From positions 1,481,511-1,521,510 of the forward strand of contig CAWEGO010000002.1 of NCBI GenBank assembly GCA_963808725.1: a stretch of 40,000 nucleotides of DNA, given 5' to 3'. Positions within the stretch are counted from its first letter, which is position 1, and the number at the start of each line of letters is the position of its first letter. The stretch comes from an uncultured Acidobacteriota bacterium (GTDB taxonomy: Bacteria > Acidobacteriota > Terriglobia > Terriglobales > Acidobacteriaceae). Both the position numbers and the translations under genes were made by a program. Of the stretch, positions 17,869-29,577 are shown in pieces. The notes beneath the pieces were generated by a model. It worked only from the letters and a program-made list of their open reading frames with translations, made no database searches and was not told where the DNA came from.

Positions 17869-18219
17869 TTACAGTGGCTCGCGCCTCGGCAGCAGGGCCC
17901 GGAACGCCATGTTGATCAGCGCCAGCACAATCGCGCCCCAGAAAGCCGGCGCGAATCCGCGCACGATGAACCCCGGCACGAACGAGGATGCCACCATCAG
18001 CATCATGGCGTTGACCACGAACCAGAACAGCCCCAGCGTGAGGATGATAAACGGGAAGGTCAGCACCTTCAGGAGCAAGCCGAGCGTGGCGTTCACCAGT
18101 CCGATCACCAGCGCAGCGATGAGCGCCGCCTTGAAATTACGGACGTAGAACCCGGGCACCACGTGGGCCACAATCATCAGGGCAACGGCACTCAGAATCC
18201 AGTGGAGGATCAGCCGCAT
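17869..18219 (-). CDS. DUF360 / phage-holin-4-2-like membrane protein
   Basis: 116 aa, four TM helices. The sequence style (LILHWILSAVALMIVAHVVPGF...GFWGAIVLALIN) is typical of YvlD/DUF360 proteins. Confidence 0.75.
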   Translation of the reverse strand: MRLILHWILSAVALMIVAHVVPGFYVRNFKAALIAALVIGLVNATLGLLLKVLTFPFIILTLGLFWFVVNAMMLMVASSFVPGFIVRGFAPAFWGAIVLALINMAFRALLPRREPL

Positions 18220-19214: not shown

Positions 19215-19427
19215 ATGTCCACCATGGGATGGCGCCTGACCCTGATCCTGATGGACTTACTCAACCCGAGCGGCTGTCCCCACGAGTTTGGATGGCCTCG
19301 CAAACGCCCCGGTGGAGAGCACTATCAGGTATGCCGACTGTGCGGGGCTGAATATACCTACGATTGGCGCGCGATGCGCCGCTGCCGGCGGACACGGGCC
19401 ATCTCGCAATCGGTACCAGTTTCTTGA
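19215..19427 (+). CDS. small zinc-ribbon-like protein
   Basis: 70 aa. The pattern C-P-H-x4-W-P...Y-x-V-C-x2-C-G-x-E-Y-x-Y-D-W-x2-M is one I recall as a small conserved family; this was not searched. Confidence 0.55.
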   Translation: MSTMGWRLTLILMDLLNPSGCPHEFGWPRKRPGGEHYQVCRLCGAEYTYDWRAMRRCRRTRAISQSVPVS

Positions 19428-19502
19428 AGCTGATCGCTGCTCTGGCGAAACCGCAACCGCCGCCATGTGGGGCCGGTACGTAAGAATTCAAAAGGAGGCT
19501 TC

Positions 19503-21929
19503 ATGATGTCCAAGGCCGCGCAGTTGCTCGGGTTGATGGTGTTGTGGTGCGGAGCCGGGTTGCTGGGGAGTAGCAGCGCGCAAGCGCAAACCAGTCCGGC
19601 TATGGCTCCAAGGGAGGCCACTGCGGCGGTCATCTCCGTTCCGCGGCTGGTGAAGTTCAGTGGCACCGTCCAGGACAGCGCCGGCAATCCGCGCAGCGGC
19701 ATCACCGGCATCACCTTCGCCTTGTACAAAGACCAGTCCGGCGGCGCGGCACTGTGGCTGGAGACGCAGAATGTCACCCTCGACGCGCAGGGCCGCTACA
19801 CGGTACTGCTGGGCGCCAACAGCACCGAAGGCATGGCGCCGGAGCTGTTCAGTTCCAACGAGGCGCAATGGCTTGGGGTGCAACCCGAGGGCCAGGCGGA
19901 GCAGCGGGTGTTGCTGGCGAGTGTGCCCTATGCCCTGAAAGCGGCCGACGCCGAGACTCTGGGCGGCATGCCGGCTTCATCGTTTGTGCTGGCGGCGCCC
20001 CTAGCCGCAGGCGCTACCACCAGCACGGGGCAGACGGGCACGACCCCGACCGCTGCTGGCACATTGGCGCCTTCGCCGGCTATCAGCGGTAGTGGCACTC
20101 CGAACACGCTCGCCGAGTTCGACAGCTCAATGACGAACCTCGTCAGCTCTTCGATCTCGGACACCGGCAAGGCGGTCAGCACCACCGAACCCGTGGGCAT
20201 CGGCACTGCCAGCCCGGGAGCCTTGCTCGACGTGGAGTTCACCACTGCTGCGCCCACCAACGCCCTGCTCTCCAACATCAACTACAACAACAGCACGGCC
20301 GTCACCAACGCCGTGGTTTCAGCCTTTGACATGAACTTCATGGACAACAGTACGGCCGCGAACCTGTCGGAGCAGACGGCGCGCATCGCCTATATCCGTG
20401 AAGCGGGGGCGACGGGAGGGGTGACGGCGTTTGATACGGCGCTGACCACGACCGAGGTGGTGAATGCCAACGCTCCCTTTCCGGTGCGATCGATCAACAT
20501 TGAAGGTCCCAATATGAATACGGGGACCACGCTGTCCAACTTCACCGGTCTCTACATCGGCTCTCCCAGCGGGGCAGGCACGGTGACCAGCAAGTTTGCG
20601 TTAGTCACCGAACCGAACGCCGGCAATGTGGGCATCGGGACCACAGCCCCAACGCAGGCACTGGAATTGGTGGGTAATCTTAAGCTGAGCGCCGCCAACG
20701 GCGCGATCATCTTCCCAGACAGCAGTACGCAATCAAGCGCAGCGACGGGAACCATCACCGGGGTGACGGCGGGATCGGGCCTGAGCGGGGGCGGGACATC
20801 GGGCAACGTGACTCTGAGCCTGCCGACCAGCTGCTTGACGGGACAGATCATGAAGTGGAACGGCTCCGCGTGGACCTGCAGCGCCGATCTGACGACCTCG
20901 GGCACCTTCAATGGACAGCCCACCAACTTCAGCGGTGACACCACCAATCAGATCGTTTATGCCAACCAGACGAGCGCCGGTATCACCAATCCCAGCTCTA
21001 CCAATCTGCCGCCGGCGGCGATCTTTGGCGACGCCACCAACGCCACTGGCCTTACCGTGGGCGTGGTGGGCAGGTCGCAGAGTGCGCCGGGAGCTGGAAT
21101 GATCGGTATCGCAACCGGAGTTGGTAGTTCGAACGACCGCTCCGAAGGAGTGCTTGCGGCGGCGACGGCGACGACCGGCAGGCAGATTGGCATTGATGCG
21201 CAGGTGTATAGCACCCAGGACCAGAACACTTCGAACGATAACGTGATCGCAGGCCGCTTTATAAACTACGGCGGCGGTCTGGTCATCGAAGGGGATGGCC
21301 CTTTCACCGGCACGACCTGCACTCCTCCGCCATGCTCGACGCAGGTCTTCACTGTGGATACCCAGGGCAACACGCGAATCAATGGGAGCCTGACTGCGGG
21401 CAACACGCAAATCAATGGGAGCCTAAACGTGAACGGCACGCTGAGCAAGGCGGGCGGCTCCTTCAAGATCGACCACCCCCTGGATCCGGCGAACAAGTAC
21501 CTTTATCACTCCTTCGTGGAATCGCCGGACATGAAGAACATCTACGACGGGGTAGTGAGGCTGGACGCCCACGGCCAGGCCTGGGTCGATCTGCCGGATT
21601 GGTTTGAGGCTTTGAACCGGGACTTCCGTTACCAGTTGACTGCCATAGGCGGTCCGGGGCCCGGGCTGTACGTTGCCCGGGAGGTAAAGAACAGTCGCTT
21701 CAAGATCGCCGGCGGCCGGGCGAATGGCAAAGTGTCCTGGCAGGTGACGGGCATCCGGCACGATGCCTATGCCGACGCGCATCGCATCCAGGTGGAAGAG
21801 GAAAAGCGCGGCGAAGAGCGCGGCCGATATATGCATCCCGAGTTGTTCGGCCATCCGGAGGGTGACGCCATCGGAACGGCTGCGAACGGCACGGCCGGTA
21901 TCGAGTCCGCAGCGGCAGGACAGCACTAG
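19503..21929 (+). CDS. secreted fibre-like protein, paralogue 1 (808 aa)
   Basis: AAAAGGAGG RBS. Sec signal MMSKAAQLLGLMVLWCGAGLLGSSSAQAQ. Tail-fibre-like repeats NVGIGTTAPTQALELVGNLKL, GTITGVTAGSGLSGGGTSGNVTLS and C..GQIMKWNGSAWTC. Conserved C-terminal module FKIDHPLDPANKYLYHSFVESPDM...ALNRDFRYQLTA...SWQVTGIRHDAYA. Confidence 0.85.
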   Translation: MMSKAAQLLGLMVLWCGAGLLGSSSAQAQTSPAMAPREATAAVISVPRLVKFSGTVQDSAGNPRSGITGITFALYKDQSGGAALWLETQNVTLDAQGRYTVLLGANSTEGMAPELFSSNEAQWLGVQPEGQAEQRVLLASVPYALKAADAETLGGMPASSFVLAAPLAAGATTSTGQTGTTPTAAGTLAPSPAISGSGTPNTLAEFDSSMTNLVSSSISDTGKAVSTTEPVGIGTASPGALLDVEFTTAAPTNALLSNINYNNSTAVTNAVVSAFDMNFMDNSTAANLSEQTARIAYIREAGATGGVTAFDTALTTTEVVNANAPFPVRSINIEGPNMNTGTTLSNFTGLYIGSPSGAGTVTSKFALVTEPNAGNVGIGTTAPTQALELVGNLKLSAANGAIIFPDSSTQSSAATGTITGVTAGSGLSGGGTSGNVTLSLPTSCLTGQIMKWNGSAWTCSADLTTSGTFNGQPTNFSGDTTNQIVYANQTSAGITNPSSTNLPPAAIFGDATNATGLTVGVVGRSQSAPGAGMIGIATGVGSSNDRSEGVLAAATATTGRQIGIDAQVYSTQDQNTSNDNVIAGRFINYGGGLVIEGDGPFTGTTCTPPPCSTQVFTVDTQGNTRINGSLTAGNTQINGSLNVNGTLSKAGGSFKIDHPLDPANKYLYHSFVESPDMKNIYDGVVRLDAHGQAWVDLPDWFEALNRDFRYQLTAIGGPGPGLYVAREVKNSRFKIAGGRANGKVSWQVTGIRHDAYADAHRIQVEEEKRGEERGRYMHPELFGHPEGDAIGTAANGTAGIESAAAGQH

Positions 21930-21978
21930 CTATCAGGTATGCCGATTGTGCAACCGCAAGAATTCAAAAGGAGGCTTC

Positions 21979-24396
21979 ATGATGTCCAAGGCCACGCAGT
22001 TGCTCGGGTTGATGGTGTTGTGGTTCGGAGCCGGGTTACTGGGGAGCAGCAGCGCGACAGCGCAAACCAGTCCCGCGACGGCTCCGAGTGAGGGCACAGC
22101 GACGGTCACATCGGTTCCCAGGCTGGTGAAGTTCAGCGGCACCGTCCAGGACGCCGCCGGCAATCCACGCAGCGGCATCACCGGCATCACCTTCGCCTTG
22201 TACAAAGACCAGTCCGGCGGCGCGGCACTGTGGCTGGAGACGCAGAATGTCACCCTCGACGCGCAGGGCCGCTACACGGTACTGCTGGGCGCCAACAGCA
22301 CCGAAGGCATGGCGCCGGAGCTGTTCAGCTCCAACGAGGCGCAATGGCTTGGGGTGCAACCTGAGGGCCAGGCCGAGCAGCGAATTTTATTGGTGAGCGT
22401 TCCCTATGCGCTGAAAGCGGCCGACGCCGAGACTCTGGGCGGCATGCCGGCTTCATCGTTTGTGCTGGCGGCGCCCCTAGCCGCAGGCGCTACCACCAGC
22501 ACGGGGCAGACGGGCACGACCCCGACCGCTGCTGGCACATTGGCGCCTTCGCCGGCTATCAGCGGTAGTGGCACTCCGAACACGCTCGCCGAGTTCGACA
22601 GCTCAATGACGAACCTCGTCAGCTCTTCGATCTCGGACACCGGCAAGGCGGTCAGCACCCTGGAACCGGTGGGCATCGGCACTGCCAGCCCGGGAGCCTT
22701 GCTCGACGTGGAGTTCACCACTGCTGCGCCCACCAACGCCCTGCTCTCCAACATCAACTACAACAACAGCACGGCCGTCACTAACGCCGTGGTTTCAGCC
22801 TTTGACATGAACTTTATGGACAACAGCACGGCCGCGAACCTGTCGAAGCAGACGGCGCGCATCGCCTATATCCGTGAAGCGGGGGCGACGGGAGGGGTGA
22901 CGGCGTTTGACACGGCGCTGACCACGACCGAGGTGGTGAATGCCAACGCTCCCTTTCCGGTGCGGTCGATCAACATTGAAGGTCCCAATATGAACACGGG
23001 GACCACGCTGTCCAACTTCACCGGTCTCTACATCGGCTCTCCCAGCGGGGCAGGCACGGTGACCAGCAAGTTTGCGTTAGTCACCGAACCGAACGCCGGC
23101 AATGTGGGCATCGGGACCACAGCCCCAACGCAGGCACTGGAATTGGTGGGTAATCTTAAGCTGAGCGCCGCCACCGGCGCGATCATCTTTCCAGACAACA
23201 GTACACAATCAGTCGCAGCGACAGGAACCATCACCGGGGTCACGGCGGGATCGGGCCTGAGCGGAGGCGGCACGAGTGGCAACGTCACTCTTAGCGCCAA
23301 CCTCAGCTCGGTTCAGGCGCGTGTAACCGGAACTTGCTCTTCAGGAACGGCCATGGGTTCCATAGGCGCAACCGGTTTGGTAAGCTGCAACACTGTCAGC
23401 GGCGGGGGAGGATCACTGACCCTCCCATTTTCCGGAACCGGCGCCGACAGCCCGCCGGGCGTGCAGGGAGTGTTTAAGGTTACGGACACCACCAACGGTC
23501 CGGCAAATACCAGCAGTGGTCCGCCGAATCCCACCGCCATACCCTCAGCCGTCGTCGGTTTGACGACAGGAACTGGCATCACCGCTGGTGTGGTCGGCGA
23601 GGCGACTAATATGGACGGCGTGGGGGTAGTAGCCATTAGCACCGCGGCCGTGGGAGATGAGGTGCCGGTGCTCGTGGCCTGGAGTCAGGCTACCTCGGGA
23701 AACGTTTCGTTGATCGATGCCATGGCTTCCGCCCCGAACACCAGGGGCATCGACATGCAATTTGCGGTCACACCCACGCGGGGTATTATCCAGGCCGAAG
23801 TTGGGCCAAACAACAGTTCAACCACCGTATTCGCCGTGGACGGCAGCGGCGATATCACCACCACCGGCACAATCAATGCCAATGGCAACATCAACTCCAA
23901 CACAAGTATCACGGCACCGAGTAAGACCTTCAAGATTGATGACCCGCTTGCTCCGGCCGACAAGTGGTTGTACCACACTTCGATAGAAAGCCCGGACATG
24001 CTGAACTTCTACAACGGCGTGGTGGTGCTCGACGCCCGCGGACAAGCCTGGGTCCATATGCCCGACTGGTTCCAAGCCTTGAACAGGGACTTTCGCTACC
24101 AGCTGACGGCCGTTGGAAAACCGGCGCCCAATCTGTATGTCGCTCGGGAAATCAAAGACAACCGGTTCAAGATCTCGGGCGGCCGTCCCCACGGTAAGAT
24201 TTCGTGGCAGGTTACCGGGATTCGGCACGACGCTTACGCCAACGCGCATCGCAATCCGGTCGAACAAGAAAAGTCGCCGGCGGAGCGCGGCAAATACATG
24301 TTTCCGGAGGGGTTCGGCCATCCGGAGAGTGACGCCATCGGAGCGACTTCCCATGACACGGCCGGTATCATCTCCGCCGCGGCACAACAGCACTAG
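21979..24396 (+). CDS. secreted fibre-like protein, paralogue 2 (805 aa)
   Basis: Same RBS context and signal peptide as paralogue 1, at a constant 2476-bp offset. The proteins are collinear to ...GNVTLS, then a different middle region follows, then the same C-terminal module (FKIDDPLAPADKWLYHTSIESPDM...). The ORF track start at 21763 overlaps paralogue 1 and is not credible. Confidence 0.85.
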   Translation: MMSKATQLLGLMVLWFGAGLLGSSSATAQTSPATAPSEGTATVTSVPRLVKFSGTVQDAAGNPRSGITGITFALYKDQSGGAALWLETQNVTLDAQGRYTVLLGANSTEGMAPELFSSNEAQWLGVQPEGQAEQRILLVSVPYALKAADAETLGGMPASSFVLAAPLAAGATTSTGQTGTTPTAAGTLAPSPAISGSGTPNTLAEFDSSMTNLVSSSISDTGKAVSTLEPVGIGTASPGALLDVEFTTAAPTNALLSNINYNNSTAVTNAVVSAFDMNFMDNSTAANLSKQTARIAYIREAGATGGVTAFDTALTTTEVVNANAPFPVRSINIEGPNMNTGTTLSNFTGLYIGSPSGAGTVTSKFALVTEPNAGNVGIGTTAPTQALELVGNLKLSAATGAIIFPDNSTQSVAATGTITGVTAGSGLSGGGTSGNVTLSANLSSVQARVTGTCSSGTAMGSIGATGLVSCNTVSGGGGSLTLPFSGTGADSPPGVQGVFKVTDTTNGPANTSSGPPNPTAIPSAVVGLTTGTGITAGVVGEATNMDGVGVVAISTAAVGDEVPVLVAWSQATSGNVSLIDAMASAPNTRGIDMQFAVTPTRGIIQAEVGPNNSSTTVFAVDGSGDITTTGTINANGNINSNTSITAPSKTFKIDDPLAPADKWLYHTSIESPDMLNFYNGVVVLDARGQAWVHMPDWFQALNRDFRYQLTAVGKPAPNLYVAREIKDNRFKISGGRPHGKISWQVTGIRHDAYANAHRNPVEQEKSPAERGKYMFPEGFGHPESDAIGATSHDTAGIISAAAQQH

Positions 24397-25029
24397 ACGG
24401 GCTTCACTGCAGGAAACTCGAATGGCGGAGGGTTACCGTCCCCTCCGCCACTTTTTTCGCTGCGTGCAACCCGTGATGGCATTAGCAGGCTCCTCGCCGC
24501 TGGGGTAGCTGTTCGCGCGGGGATCATCGAAACGCCTGCAAGCATCGGGCACTCGCCTCGAGCAAGACACCTCCTGGAACGACTCGGAGTTGCCGAGATC
24601 AAGGCCGATTTTCAGAGGGGCGTGGGTCGTGGGGCCAAGGACGGCCAGGCAACGGAACCGATGGCGGAACTCTGCGGACAGTGCTGGAAGGGTACGCTCT
24701 GCGTCACTCCTTTTGGCAGGGTTTACCCCTGTGTCTTTTCTCGGTTTGCGGATCTGGGATCTGTTCAAGGCGGTGTGCAGCAGATCAGCGAGGGAGAAGC
24801 CTTGCGTGACTTCAGGTTTCGCCTGCGGGAATATTGTCGGGAGCGGGAGGCAGCTGCTCGTCGTGCGCAGCCCTGTAATCCGGATCAATGCAGGCCCACC
24901 TGTGCTCCTGCTGATTGGCGCAGTGAGCAGCCATGCCACCCAGAGTGCGTTCCTTCCACGCAGTGCGTTCCGCAATGCGTTCCTTCCACGCGGCACACTT
25001 TGTCTATCGGCTCCGTGCGAGCGATGTGA
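24397..25029 (+). pseudogene. 5'-truncated radical SAM / SPASM-domain gene remnant
   Basis: The frame is open from the codon right after the fibre-2 stop. It translates to ...VAVRAGIIETPA..HLLERLGVAEIKADFQRGVGRG...LCGQCWKGTLCVTPFGRVYPCVF (a C-x10-G-x4-C SPASM-type motif) and a Cys-rich tail CNPDQCRPTCAP...CHPECVPSTQCVPQCVPS. There is no CxxxCxxC core and no start codon before GTG 24622. Confidence 0.55.
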
Positions 25030-25089
25030 CCGGCTTCGCGGAAGACGGCGATGGTCGCAAGTTTGGAATCATCTCCGAAAGGGACCACC

Positions 25090-25833
25090 ATGTGCAAAGG
25101 GGCGCTGTCGCTGTTGATCTTGATTGCCGTGCTGATGACGCGGCCGCCGCAAACCGGTGCCCAAACGAGTCCCTCTGCCTCCCCAGCGGCGGCACGGAAA
25201 CCCATCTCTCATGCCGTAAAACCGCCAAGTTTTGATTTACGACTTAAGGCGCGGCGGCTCGATCTTGATACAACACGATTTGAGCTGGACAAGCAGATGG
25301 AAGCTCAGAAATTTGAGTTTAACAAGTCGCTTGAGATGCAAAAGCTTCAGTTAGAGCGCGACAAGGGGTGGTGGTCCGCGCTGGGAACCGGTGTTCCTCT
25401 GCTCGCGGCGATTCTGACGGTTCTTGCTGGCATAGCAAGCCAGTATAGGCAGTCCAGGACCCAATTCGAGGTGAAAGCCGCGTCGATTGCGTTTAGCGGC
25501 AAAACACCGGAAGCGATGTTACATCGTGGACAAGCCCTGAAGCGGATGTTCCCCAATCGTCTCCCCGACAGCTTTCTGGATGGTTTTGACCCGCAGAAAT
25601 TTGGAGGCGGTAAAGAACCCGCTGACCTAAAAAGATTCATCCTCCAACTGATCGCGCAAAATCTGGATCGGCGCGCGGAAATCGTGGAACTCGTGGACCA
25701 TCTTTTCCCCGGGGATTCTAAATGGATCGAAAGGCTGAAGGCCATACCGCCGGCGGCGACTAGCAAAACCCCCGCTGCCGCCGCTTCATCCACTTCAGGA
25801 GCACAGCAAGCTGCGCCTCCAACTATACCCTGA
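25090..25833 (+). CDS. hypothetical secreted/membrane protein with coiled-coil segment
   Basis: Start ATG 25090 (MCKGALSLLILIAVLM...). Coiled-coil-like LDKQMEAQKFEFNKSLEMQKLQLERDK, one TM helix (GVPLLAAILTVLAGIA) and a Pro/Ala-rich tail. GC is lower than the window average. Confidence 0.55.
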   Translation: MCKGALSLLILIAVLMTRPPQTGAQTSPSASPAAARKPISHAVKPPSFDLRLKARRLDLDTTRFELDKQMEAQKFEFNKSLEMQKLQLERDKGWWSALGTGVPLLAAILTVLAGIASQYRQSRTQFEVKAASIAFSGKTPEAMLHRGQALKRMFPNRLPDSFLDGFDPQKFGGGKEPADLKRFILQLIAQNLDRRAEIVELVDHLFPGDSKWIERLKAIPPAATSKTPAAAASSTSGAQQAAPPTIP

Positions 25834-25899
25834 ACCAGAAGGACTGGACCGGTTTGCTGTCGCCTGCGTCACTCTTCCGCCTGCCGCGATTTACTGCAA

Positions 25900-27717: not shown

Positions 27718-29429
27718 TCACGCGTCTTCGGCCGTCTCCACAAGCGGGCTGGGACGGCGGATCATGTTGTGCAGGTCGGCGCCTGCCGGCACCATCGGGT
27801 ACACCGTGTCCTCCTGCTCCACCTGGAAGTCGATCAGCACCGGGCCGCGGTGCTCGCGCGCGTCGCGGATGGTCGGAACCACATCCGCGCGGTGCTTCAC
27901 GCCGGCGGCCCGGATGCCGAAGGCCTCGGCCAGCTTGACGAAGTCCGGGCTCAGCAGCGGGGTGGCGGCGTAGCGGCGATCGTAGAAGAACTCCTGCCAC
28001 TGCCGCACCATCCCCAGGTAGCCGTTGTTGATGATGGCGATCTTGACGTTGATGTTTTCCTGCACCATGGTGGCCAGTTCGGCCATGGTCATCTGGAAGC
28101 CGCCGTCGCCGACCACCACCCAGACCTCGGCTTCCGGGCGCGCGAACTTGGCGCCGATGGCCGCCGGCAGCGCGAAGCCCATGGTGCCCAGCCCGCCGGA
28201 GGTGATAAGCGAGCGCGGCTGCTCATGGTGGTAATACTGCGCCTCCCACATCTGGTGCTGGCCCACGTCGGTGACCACTAGAGCGCCGCCGTGGGTCTCG
28301 CGCCACAGGTCGTTGATGACGTGCGCGGCGTAGAGGTGGCCGTCATCGGGCAGATTCTGGATGTCGCGCACCGCCGAGTCGCCCTTGAGTTCGTCGATGT
28401 GGTGCCGCCACTCGGAGCGGTCGACGGACTCGACATCGGGCAGCAGGTGCTCCAGCACCTGGCGCAGGTCGCCGACCAGCCCCACATCCACCTTGATGTT
28501 CTTGTTGATCTCGCACAGGATCGATCTCCACGTGGATCTTCTTCGCCGTGGGCGCGTAGGTCTTGGTGTTGCCGGTGACGCGGTCGTCGAAGCGCATGCC
28601 GAAGGCCAGCAGCAGGTCGGCCTCCTGGATGGCCTTGTTGACCCAGGCTTCGCCATGCATGCCCATCATGCCGAGATTCAGCGGATGCGACGCCGGGAAA
28701 CAGCCCAGGCCGAGCAGCGTGGGCGCTACCGGGATGCCGCTCTTCTCGGCAAAGTTCCGCAGCGCGTGCATCGCCCCGGAGATGATTACGCCGTGCCCGG
28801 CCAGGATGATCGGGCGCTGGGCGCTGTTGATCAGCGCGAACGCCTGATCGTAGTCCTCGGGATCGGGCGAAAGGTCGGGACGATATCCCGGCAGTTGCGG
28901 CGCGGCGGCTTCCCAGTCGAACTCGCAGGAACTCTGCTGCGCGTCCTTGGTGATGTCGACCAGCACCGGGCCCGGCCGGCCCGAGGCCGCGATGTAGAAC
29001 GCTTCGCGGATGACGCGCGCCATGCTCCTCGGGGTGCGTCACCAGGTAGTTGTGCTTGGTGATGGGCAGGGTGACGCCGGTGATGTCGGTTTCCTGGAAG
29101 GCGTCGTAGCCGATCAGCTTGCTGCCCACCTGGCCGGTGATGCACACGATGGGCGAGGAATCCATCATGGCGGTGGCGATGCCGGTGACCAGGTTGGTGG
29201 CGCCGGGGCCGGAGGTGGCGATGGCCACGCCCACGCCGCCGCTGGCGCGCGCGTAGCCGTCGGCCATGTGCGCAGCGCCCTGCTCGTGCCGCACCAGAAT
29301 GTGGTGGATGGGATAGCGGGTCATCGCGTCATACGCGGGAAGAATCGCGCCGCCGGGATAGCCGAACACGTATTTCACTCCCTGGCGCACCAGGCATTCC
29401 CAAATGATCTCGCTGCCGGTCTTGGTCAT
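27718..29429 (-). pseudogene. ilvB: acetolactate synthase large subunit, split across three frames (breaks near 29024-29040 and 28511-28523)
   Basis: The N-terminus [27 protein letters not shown]...[12 protein letters not shown] is in one frame. [24 protein letters not shown]...HVEIDP is in a second. ...[15 protein letters not shown]...GDGGFQMT...INNGYLGMVRQWQ runs to stop 27718 in a third. Confidence 0.9.
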
Positions 29430-29461
29430 GGCTGTCACCCTCTCAAGAACTGTCAAACTTC

Positions 29462-29577
29462 TTTTCGCCGCGGATGAACGCGGATGGACGCGGATTGGAA
29501 TCCGGCTTTTGGCTCTTAGCTCTTGGCTCTTGGCCAAACCCGCTCGGCGAAAAGCCAAGAGCCAACAGCCAAGAGCC
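29462..29577. repeat. composite array element: GCGGATNNNN x3 half-element plus TTGGCTC/GAGCCAA heptamer hairpin
   Basis: GCGGAT occurs at 29470, 29480 and 29490 (10-nt period), ending in the palindrome CGGATTGGAATCCG. Then TTGGCTCTTAGCTCTTGGCTCTTGGCC (29509-29535) faces AGCCAAGAGCCAACAGCCAAGAGCC (29553-29577), matching about 22 of 25 after reverse complement. Confidence 0.9.

Follow-up and report, generated by a model that had tools for sequence, protein, structure and literature searches.

The closest described systems to the genes reported here are the mosaic adhesive trimer (MAT) fibres of the predator Bdellovibrio, which are surface-displayed trimers with an invariant N-terminal domain and swappable tips and which comprise S74 and non-S74 subfamilies (Caulton et al. 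2024, PMC10769870). They are stated to occur in other bacteria as well, 'predatory and otherwise' (PMC10769870). In this study we analysed two adjacent genes for secreted fibre-like proteins, A and B, in a DNA stretch of 40,000 nucleotides (nt), called the window in the following, from an uncultured bacterium of the Acidobacteriaceae (Acidobacteriota, Terriglobales; assembly GCA_963808725.1, contig CAWEGO010000002.1, positions 1,481,511 to 1,521,510). An earlier reading of the letters alone, referred to as the original prediction, had described them as tandem paralogues with a shared stalk, a swapped middle and a conserved C-terminal module. Our analysis makes it fairly likely that A and B are co-transcribed, Sec-exported, phage-tail-fibre-like surface fibres of the MAT superfamily, which arose by a tandem duplication followed by conversion of the front half and which retain two old distal alleles. 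A literature search on tail-fibre-like secreted proteins in Acidobacteria found no relevant report.

Like the Bdellovibrio MAT fibres, the A and B proteins are secreted and phage-tail-fibre-like, and their conserved N-terminal domain is followed by a shaft that matches Bd2133, Bd2439 and Bd3182. Mosaic distal domains of the S74 and non-S74 type, seen in close relatives of A and B, and the presence of many paralogues per genome are further common traits. In contrast, the N-terminal domain of A and B is only a remote homologue (25 bits versus 60, partial coverage), the host is a Terriglobales acidobacterium and not a known predator, and the proteins have about 800 instead of about 1000 amino acids. 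Furthermore, they end in a conserved module that is unlike the six solved MAT tips and has the variable part just in front of it, and they are encoded by a tandem pair with a homogenised front half.

A second group for comparison are phage tail fibres with a C-terminal S74 domain (PF13884; e.g. of endosialidase or T5 pb1 type). These also consist of a shaft, a variable specificity region and a conserved C-terminal module. Sister proteins of A and B with the same N-terminal domain and stalk carry S74 in the corresponding position, and the C-terminal module of A and B is, as S74, common to phage and cellular fibres. However, no similarity to PF13884 was detected in A or B (Pfam, E<=1), the SDxxxK autoproteolysis motif was not identified, and the fold of the A/B module is predicted to be a beta-sandwich. 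The tail-fibre or minor-tail proteins of phage Mufasa8 (gp19), P-SSM2/P-SSM5 and cyanophage S-TIM54 have a C-terminal module homologous to that of A and B, which is uncharacterised there as well, but they are encoded among virion genes and have neither a signal peptide nor the cellular N-terminal domain.

Gene conversion of surface-protein paralogues is a general phenomenon, for example in tail-fibre and adhesin gene families. The A/B locus shares with other cases of cassette variation in surface proteins the recombining conserved flanks, the hypervariable, presumably specificity-determining segments and the copy-number polymorphism at a fixed locus. It differs from them in that it has no invertase, silent-cassette array or diversity-generating retroelement.

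Anatomy of the gene pair

The two genes and the segments of their products are the following.

19503-21929, + strand: gene A, open reading frame (ORF) for a secreted fibre protein of 808 amino acids with the A-type distal half
21979-24396, + strand: gene B, ORF for a secreted fibre protein of 805 amino acids with the B-type distal half
19479-20800, + strand: copy 1 of the homogenised tract (ribosome-binding site, signal peptide, N-terminal domain, linker and stalk), with its partner at 21955-23276
19503-19589, + strand: signal peptide of A, residues 1-29, MMSKAAQLLGLMVLWCGAGLLGSSSAQAQ, read from the sequence without a predictor
19641-19997, + strand: N-terminal beta-sandwich domain with the VPYALKAADAETLGG transition motif, residues 47-165, putative cell-surface anchor (AlphaFold2 model, homologues)
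20118-20822, + strand: stalk or shaft, residues 206-440, with GIGT-type fibre repeats (match of profile A4 to solved MAT fibres)
20823-21458, + strand: hypervariable middle of the A type, residues 441-652, putative specificity region (about 29% identity to the B middle)
21459-21926, + strand: C-terminal module of A, residues 653-808, FKIDHPLDP...SWQVTGIRHDAYA...YMHPELFG (alignment A1)
21930-21978, + strand: A-B spacer of 49 nt, tandem-duplication junction (alignment A3)
23299-23925, + strand: hypervariable middle of the B type, residues 441-649 (B-type orthologues)
23926-24393, + strand: C-terminal module of B, residues 650-805 (67% identity to the A module)

Genes A and B are adjacent and lie on the same strand. 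The identical upstream context noted in the original prediction was recovered: AATTCAAAAGGAGGCTTCATGATG is present exactly twice, at 19485 and 21961, and the same offset of 2476 was returned by the repeat finder. Residues 1-439 of both proteins align without gaps and with exactly 16 differences, 9 of which fall within the first 60 residues, in line with the earlier count of about 16, half of them early. On DNA level, the A/B identity per 50 nt amounts to 0.76-1.0 over 19500-20800, drops to 0.52 at 20800-20849 and is random beyond. The shared tract contains 70 nucleotide differences in 1330 nt, which are clustered. The section reported as almost base-identical (19690-20690 and 22166-23166) deserves this description, with 23 differences in 1006 nt or 97.7% identity between 19692-20697 and its gene B counterpart.

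The similarity stops after ...GVTAGSGLSGGGTSGNVTLS at residue 439, where the shared part ends in ...GNVTLS. In this respect the divergent middle of the original prediction was found as described, but its statement that the two middles are unrelated proved wrong. A BLAST comparison of the A and B middles gave no match at 1e-5. Aligned from end to end, they show about 29% identity and the common landmarks Cys, FSG, TGxTxGVxG, GxGV, ATxG and FxVDxxG, and with one A-type orthologue the B middle shares 31% identity (E=5e-6). The end-to-end alignment with its shared landmarks indicates that the middles are strongly diverged versions of one module. The A middle is 75-76% identical to those of the A-type orthologues P0002 and P0003. 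For the B middle, identities are 86-88% to the B-type orthologues P0013, P0016 and P0021 and 84% to gene 1 of L095, a locus from an independent genome. The C-terminal module of B shares 92-93% identity with its B-type orthologues. Between A and B, the last 168 amino acids are 67% identical and include the motifs quoted in the original prediction, which had estimated about 165 amino acids and about 70% identity. Just ahead of its C-terminal module, gene A contains an internal 33-nt tandem duplication (21365-21430; GNTRINGSLTA / GNTQINGSLNV, 85% identical), which adds one 11-residue fibre repeat compared to A-type orthologues.

Both proteins start with a Sec-type leader composed of MMSK, a hydrophobic core and AQA. 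Leaders of comparable kind were read directly in all full-length relatives, which supports the signal peptides claimed before. A Thr/Ala/Pro linker is situated between N-terminal domain and shaft. Both copies look expressed, with an intact ORF behind a separate ribosome-binding site in either case. Genes A and B are probably co-transcribed, since a consensus scan found no terminator-like hairpin in the 49-nt A-B spacer and one behind gene B, as expected for a single transcript:

24423-24460, + strand: region of a strong terminator-like hairpin (24423-24450) with a 10-bp stem, 8 G-C pairs and a T-run, 27 nt past gene B (consensus scan)

A scan for sigma-70 promoters upstream of A gave no match; the sigma-70 consensus is uninformative for this phylum.

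Relation to the MAT superfamily

More than 4,200 homologues of A and B were obtained in a word-limited search, and these are visibly mosaic. The N-terminal domain was found in 120 out of the 120 best homologues and follows a Sec-type signal peptide in all full-length members; stalk, middle and C-terminus combine freely. Proteins with the same N-terminal domain and stalk carry as other tips Peptidase_S74 (PF13884; P0012, P0022, P0026 and P0093), a Kelch propeller (P0029), a lactonase-type propeller (P0114) or unannotated tips. The stalk profile A4 matched the solved Bdellovibrio MAT fibres 8OND (Bd2133, E=2.8e-13), 8OL4 and 8ONF (Bd2439, E=1e-4) and 8OJN (Bd3182, E=0.019), the codes of which are confirmed in PMC10769870. 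These were its only meaningful matches in the PDB. Sequence and profile searches of the PDB with the C-terminal module, the N-terminal domain and the middle returned nothing meaningful, and scans of the whole A and B proteins against Pfam, NCBIfam and PHROGs gave no match above threshold. The sub-threshold PHROGs matches phrog_17490 and phrog_11559 are families of unknown function. Weak matches to EutS were rejected as spurious, as they fell on the Gly-rich GIGT stretch.

For the N-terminal domain the connection to MAT fibres is transitive. Bdello_MAT_N (NCBIfam NF053851) was the sole consistent family for all 35 of 35 N-region sequences, with a best E-value of 1.2e-10 and below the 60-bit cut-off. 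Proteins from other phyla that bear the same C-terminal module cover positions 2-143 of this model, and the profile of the window N-terminal domain matches the same residues of those proteins (e.g. L061, E=6.5e-18). This sub-threshold, transitive link points to a remote homologue of Bdello_MAT_N. AlphaFold2, applied here to monomers, predicted a confident beta-sandwich core for the domain (pLDDT about 90), for which Foldseek found no significant neighbour in the PDB (best E=0.003, generic beta-sandwiches). This agrees with the statement of the MAT paper on its own N-terminal domain (PMC10769870). Neither 50,697 phage genomes nor IMG/VR contained a match to the N-terminal domain.

Several points weigh against our assignment and the functional model derived from it. 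With Bdello_MAT_N, A scores 20-25 bits and B 17 bits versus a curated cut-off of 60, and the window protein covers only model positions 133-160, i.e. the last 28. The GIGT shaft motif is also a general motif of phage tail fibres. A dedicated secretion gene, which would account for the route of a Sec-exported fibre across the outer membrane, is not present nearby. Finally, the C-terminal module has no significant match to solved structures (Foldseek versus PDB, best E=0.0095, TM score 0.32), and the cap role considered below is thus argued from the place of the module in the protein, from its conservation and from the fact that it and S74 exclude one another.

Due to the sub-cut-off score and the partial coverage, A and B do not qualify as members of the Bdellovibrio subfamily. 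Shaft homology, mosaic tip exchange with S74 and non-S74 forms and an N-terminal secretion signal were all found, and the shaft (directly) and the N-terminal domain (transitively) suggest a place in the wider MAT superfamily. Hence, A and B are best filed as new non-Bdellovibrio MAT-like fibres and would represent a known kind rather than a new system. The 'unknown function' of the original prediction is accordingly to be narrowed: the C-terminal module is without a curated family, whereas the kind of fibre is known.

Several homologues are annotated as trimeric autotransporter adhesins by JGI, and the proteins are indeed fibrous, secreted and probably trimeric. That A and B belong to this class is nevertheless scarcely credible. 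Neither a YadA-type anchor nor any Pfam domain was detected at E<=1, the C-terminus was modelled as a soluble beta-sandwich with helices and not as a membrane beta-barrel segment, and it also occurs in phage proteins.

Evidence for tandem duplication and concerted evolution

Both gene copies are real. The exact A and B proteins are recorded together on one 2.47-Mb contig, and gene A is also found in full length at about 99% identity on an independent 56-kb contig. Both distal halves are also present in each of two metagenome-assembled genomes (MAGs) from short reads. There they lie on different contigs, which begin within the shared N-terminal half, as would be expected if an assembler breaks at a repeat. 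An adjacent pair of fibre genes is also present in the independent genome L095. A collapsed or duplicated repeat in the assembly might be suspected, as the source contig has indel-type errors, its ilvB gene is split over three frames, and look-ups with the exact gene sequences of A and B returned no contig. Such an artefact is nonetheless extremely improbable in view of the 70 differing positions in the shared part, the wholly different distal halves with orthologues of their own, the same duplication junction in the L095 pair, and the independent contig and short-read MAGs just mentioned. The ilvB gene itself (27718-29558, - strand) changes between its three reading frames near 29025 and 28516. 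An intact orthologue of 569 amino acids (L092) aligns with it at 93-96% identity in frames -3, -1 and -2. Either the assembly has two indel errors of the kind typical of long reads, or this ilvB is a pseudogene.

Between A and B, the synonymous divergence (dS) amounts to 0.06-0.10 for codons 61-400, increases to about 0.3 towards either edge of the tract and is saturated, with values of 1.1-1.4, in the C-terminal module. Differences within the N-terminal half are clustered, e.g. 12 within 19898-19934, and are separated by identical runs of 160-250 nt, which is a pattern typical of patchy gene conversion. The distal halves of both types have orthologues in relatives at 85-91% DNA identity. Since this is nearly as close as the flanking ilvC gene (93%), the split into A and B predates these lineages. 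The window stalk is present in both window copies and is not alignable on DNA level to the stalks of the relatives. In the L095 pair, another stalk type is 95% identical between the two copies, but the C-terminal modules are only 77% identical. Thus, the stalk is genome-specific and the distal halves are type-specific. N-terminal halves group by genome and distal halves by type, which amounts to concerted evolution.

At the same site, we found A only (L091), B only (L092-L094), B followed by A (L095) and, in the window, A followed by B. Recombination through the shared segment of 1.3 kb would be expected to produce such a polymorphism in order and copy number. The A-B spacer is the scar of a tandem duplication: at the junction, which has an AGCACTA microhomology, ...AGCACTAG from the end of gene A continues into CTATCAGGTATGCCGATTGTGC, a piece from halfway through a small ORF, and the ribosome-binding site comes next (alignment A3). 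The L095 pair has the same junction and kept the full 3' half of the small ORF, of which the window lost about 146 nt. The intact ORF is located in front of gene A:

19215-19427, + strand: small Cys-rich ORF of 70 amino acids, directly upstream of gene A, the 3' half of which belonged to the duplicated unit

Its product (CPHEF...YQVCRLCGAEY) has no Pfam match and may be a small zinc-ribbon protein, or the ORF may act as a leader or regulator. It also precedes the fibre gene in L091, L092 and L094. The original prediction had proposed gene conversion or partial duplication that keeps one stalk with two alternative distal regions, and the contrast in dS, the clustered differences, the genome-specific stalk and the junction all support this proposal.

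Tandem arrays with shared leaders are common elsewhere: L022 has five copies, L029 at least eight and L034 three. In the two Acidobacteriota arrays of L022 (1169-13717) and L029 (510-18666), the L022 paralogues have near-identical leaders and N-termini, and homogenised N-terminal halves may therefore be general to the family.

A stable chromosomal locus

Upstream of the fibre genes, the window encodes mnmG, trpE/trpG, a TonB-C protein, a TPR protein, a LOG-like protein and thiE, followed by a PF04020 membrane protein and a response regulator with a PAS domain. Downstream are ilvC, ilvN, ilvB, ilvD (opposite strand), a peptidase S41 gene, cysS and others. In relatives, one or more fibre genes occupy the same site, with the PF04020 gene and the response regulator upstream and ilvC-N-B-D downstream. 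Housekeeping neighbours and synteny together indicate a stable chromosomal site and not a prophage. A B12-binding radical-SAM gene and a DUF2007 gene, which lie between the fibre gene and ilvC in relatives, were found by tblastn neither the one nor the other in the window. The window has in 24397-25899 unannotated sequence and an ORF of 260 amino acids (25051-25833) without Pfam match. Scans of the window for tRNAs and Rfam families gave no match. The labels of cluster members at NCBI also point to the Terriglobales (Acidobacteriota).

Some observations could suggest that A and B are tail-fibre genes left in the chromosome by a prophage or tailocin. Their C-terminal module occurs in tail-fibre and minor-tail proteins of phages (Mufasa8 gp19, P-SSM2) and on viral contigs, one relative is named 'tail fiber domain-containing protein' by NCBI, and a gene for a membrane protein of the PF04020 'Phage_holin_4_2' family (17869-18219, - strand) is located 1.3 kb upstream. 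The latter is syntenic in L092 and L093 and not accompanied by phage genes, and is therefore no evidence of a prophage. In the 40-kb window there are no phage structural, baseplate, integrase, lysis or secretion genes, and the GC content is not deviant. The phage-gene neighbourhood of a prophage was hence not found, the window being of housekeeping character throughout and the locus syntenic between the response regulator and ilvCNBD. As to domains common to virion tail fibres, the C-terminal module is one, but the N-terminal domain is missing from phage collections. Moreover, the viral versions lack the Sec signal peptide that is seen in A, in B and in every full-length relative. A prophage or tailocin origin is thus largely refuted, and we regard it as very improbable.

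These results agree with the original prediction, which had seen no phage, baseplate or secretion genes nearby and had proposed a cellular, cassette-like system. The syntenic housekeeping locus, the relatives with A only, B only or B-A, and the absence of the N-terminal domain from phage collections all favour a system of this kind. As evidence to the contrary, the original prediction had named a characterised family that is matched within a prophage or secretion-system context. No such case was encountered, because the locus is no prophage and the C-terminal domain is uncharacterised.

The C-terminal module

The core of the C-terminal module extends over about 140 amino acids from GGSFKIDHPLDP to YLHPELFG and has many invariant residues (alignment A1). 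A word-indexed search yielded 5,681 matches, and among those listed the module was without exception C-terminal. In an exhaustive search, 16,983 representative clusters (50% identity) were found at E<=1e-3 and 8,370 at E<=1e-30, and the module was C-terminal in all 150 of the 150 best listed of the 16,983. A search across genomes had been recommended with the original prediction; the GTDB species genomes contain at least 591 matches, and the best identity among the best 80 of these genome loci, which do not include the source genome itself, was 72%. At 60-72% identity the module occurs in Acidobacteriota, Chloroflexota, Bacteroidota, Verrucomicrobiota, Planctomycetota, Proteobacteria, Calditrichota, Actinomycetota and others, and two archaeal MAGs assigned to the Nitrososphaeraceae fall within this range. 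On the contigs of the latter (L045, 9734-10291; L087, 9695-10609), it is part of short proteins without signal peptide at 60-62% identity. The low-GC surroundings in L087 (29-41%) argue against an acidobacterial contaminant. PHROGs did not resolve the context of the L087 neighbours, one of which has a peptidase/endolysin-like domain. What looks like a distant variant, LYAVESPENWYEDFG...LYVAKK...FDYRIVARRRGYE, forms the last approximately 120 amino acids of P0023 (650 amino acids) and does not have the FKIDHPLDP start, which suggests that our profile captures only a part of the domain superfamily.

The designation of the module as uncharacterised was justified, as no Pfam, NCBIfam or PDB relative was found. 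Its AlphaFold2 model (pLDDT 85) is mostly beta. Its best structural matches, which are weak, are all C-terminal tailspike or tail-fibre domains (7eea, 6ct8 and 4mtm), and none of these is a solved MAT tip. A Foldseek comparison with predicted viral structures resulted in 23 significant matches, among them the minor tail protein of Arthrobacter phage Mufasa8 (gp19) and a tail-fibre-like protein of Prochlorococcus phage P-SSM2 (27-32% identity, E=1e-9 to 2.6e-8). By tblastn the module was confirmed in these two phages and additionally found in P-SSM5 and S-TIM54, at about 34% identity. Ten IMG/VR contigs carry it at 46-63% identity at the end of proteins without signal peptide, one of which matches a PHROG tail-fibre family. 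As the N-terminal domain was found in cellular proteins only and the C-terminal module is shared with phages, the front end of the fibres appears to be a cellular invention and the back end to be common with phages. The module is also present on contigs binned as giant-virus MAGs (GVMAGs) and putatively viral (L001, 5355-8435; L003, 156-1355). A GVMAG-binned protein with the module has 1026 amino acids and collagen-like GxxGxx repeats, and is without signal peptide.

Comparison of the A and B modules gave a non-synonymous divergence (dN) of 0.19 at a dS of 1.36. The resulting dN/dS of about 0.14 places the module under strong purifying selection. Because of this selection, its position next to the most variable segment and its alternation with S74, it most likely acts as a C-terminal cap for folding or trimerisation and not as the determinant of specificity.

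A different role would be that of a ligand-binding tip for a ubiquitous ligand, with the middle as a mere shaft, subject to drift or to a diversification of an immune-like or phage-driven kind. The adhesive tip of Bdellovibrio MAT fibres is the extreme C-terminal domain (PMC10769870), the module is terminal in phage proteins too, and the tailspike and tail-fibre domains named above, to which it has its best if weak resemblance, are also C-terminal. However, receptor-binding tips are usually the most variable part, whereas the module retains 60-72% identity across phyla and archaeal MAGs and 46-63% on viral contigs, at a dN/dS of about 0.14. It is the adjoining middle, with 29% identity, that is hypervariable, and proteins that otherwise resemble each other end either in the module or in the S74 chaperone. 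We therefore consider a tip function possible but rather unlikely, and prefer the cap.

As a tentative and more far-reaching idea, the FKIDHPLDP...SWQVTGIRHD...YLHPELFG module of about 140 amino acids may define a new widespread class of fibre folding or trimerisation domains. This class would be functionally equivalent to S74, possibly with removal after assembly at a candidate cleavage point near ...GTLSK|AGGSFKIDHPLDP, and interchangeable between phage tail fibres and secreted cellular fibres of many phyla and some archaeal MAGs. If this is true, the conserved gene ends would serve as recombination handles by which cells and phages trade hypervariable receptor-binding cassettes.

Model and implications

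In the reading that we favour, the tandem duplication would have involved a unit that begins halfway into the small ORF upstream and comprises the fibre gene up to its end. Since then, the 1.3-kb front half would have been repeatedly homogenised by gene conversion, with the distal halves persisting as two old alleles, A-type and B-type. Recombination via the shared front half could generate strains that carry A or B alone, or both in either order (B-A, A-B). A single transcript would be translated into two pre-proteins, which would be exported by the Sec pathway and lose their signal peptides, probably after AQA. By homology to MAT shafts, which were solved as trimers, the chains are expected to form trimeric fibres. 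The N-terminal domain presumably anchors the fibre to the surface of the producer, and the hypervariable module near the far end is the presumed determinant of ligand specificity in adhesion or recognition. Two distal binding specificities might in this way be mounted on one common anchor and stalk, with the C-terminal module in the position that the S74 intramolecular chaperone has in sister proteins.

These findings would extend the MAT concept, introduced in 2024 for the predator Bdellovibrio, to abundant soil Acidobacteriota and, by common architecture, to several further phyla. As a natural case of concerted evolution and cassette polymorphism in a surface fibre, the locus is a clean one. 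Furthermore, a large unannotated C-terminal domain family with about 17,000 clusters links cellular fibres and phage tail fibres. It is a good target for structure determination, and its role is the main question worth following. The A/B fibres could guide the study of cell-cell and cell-polymer recognition in uncultured soil bacteria as well as that of the exchange of receptor-binding modules between phages and their hosts.

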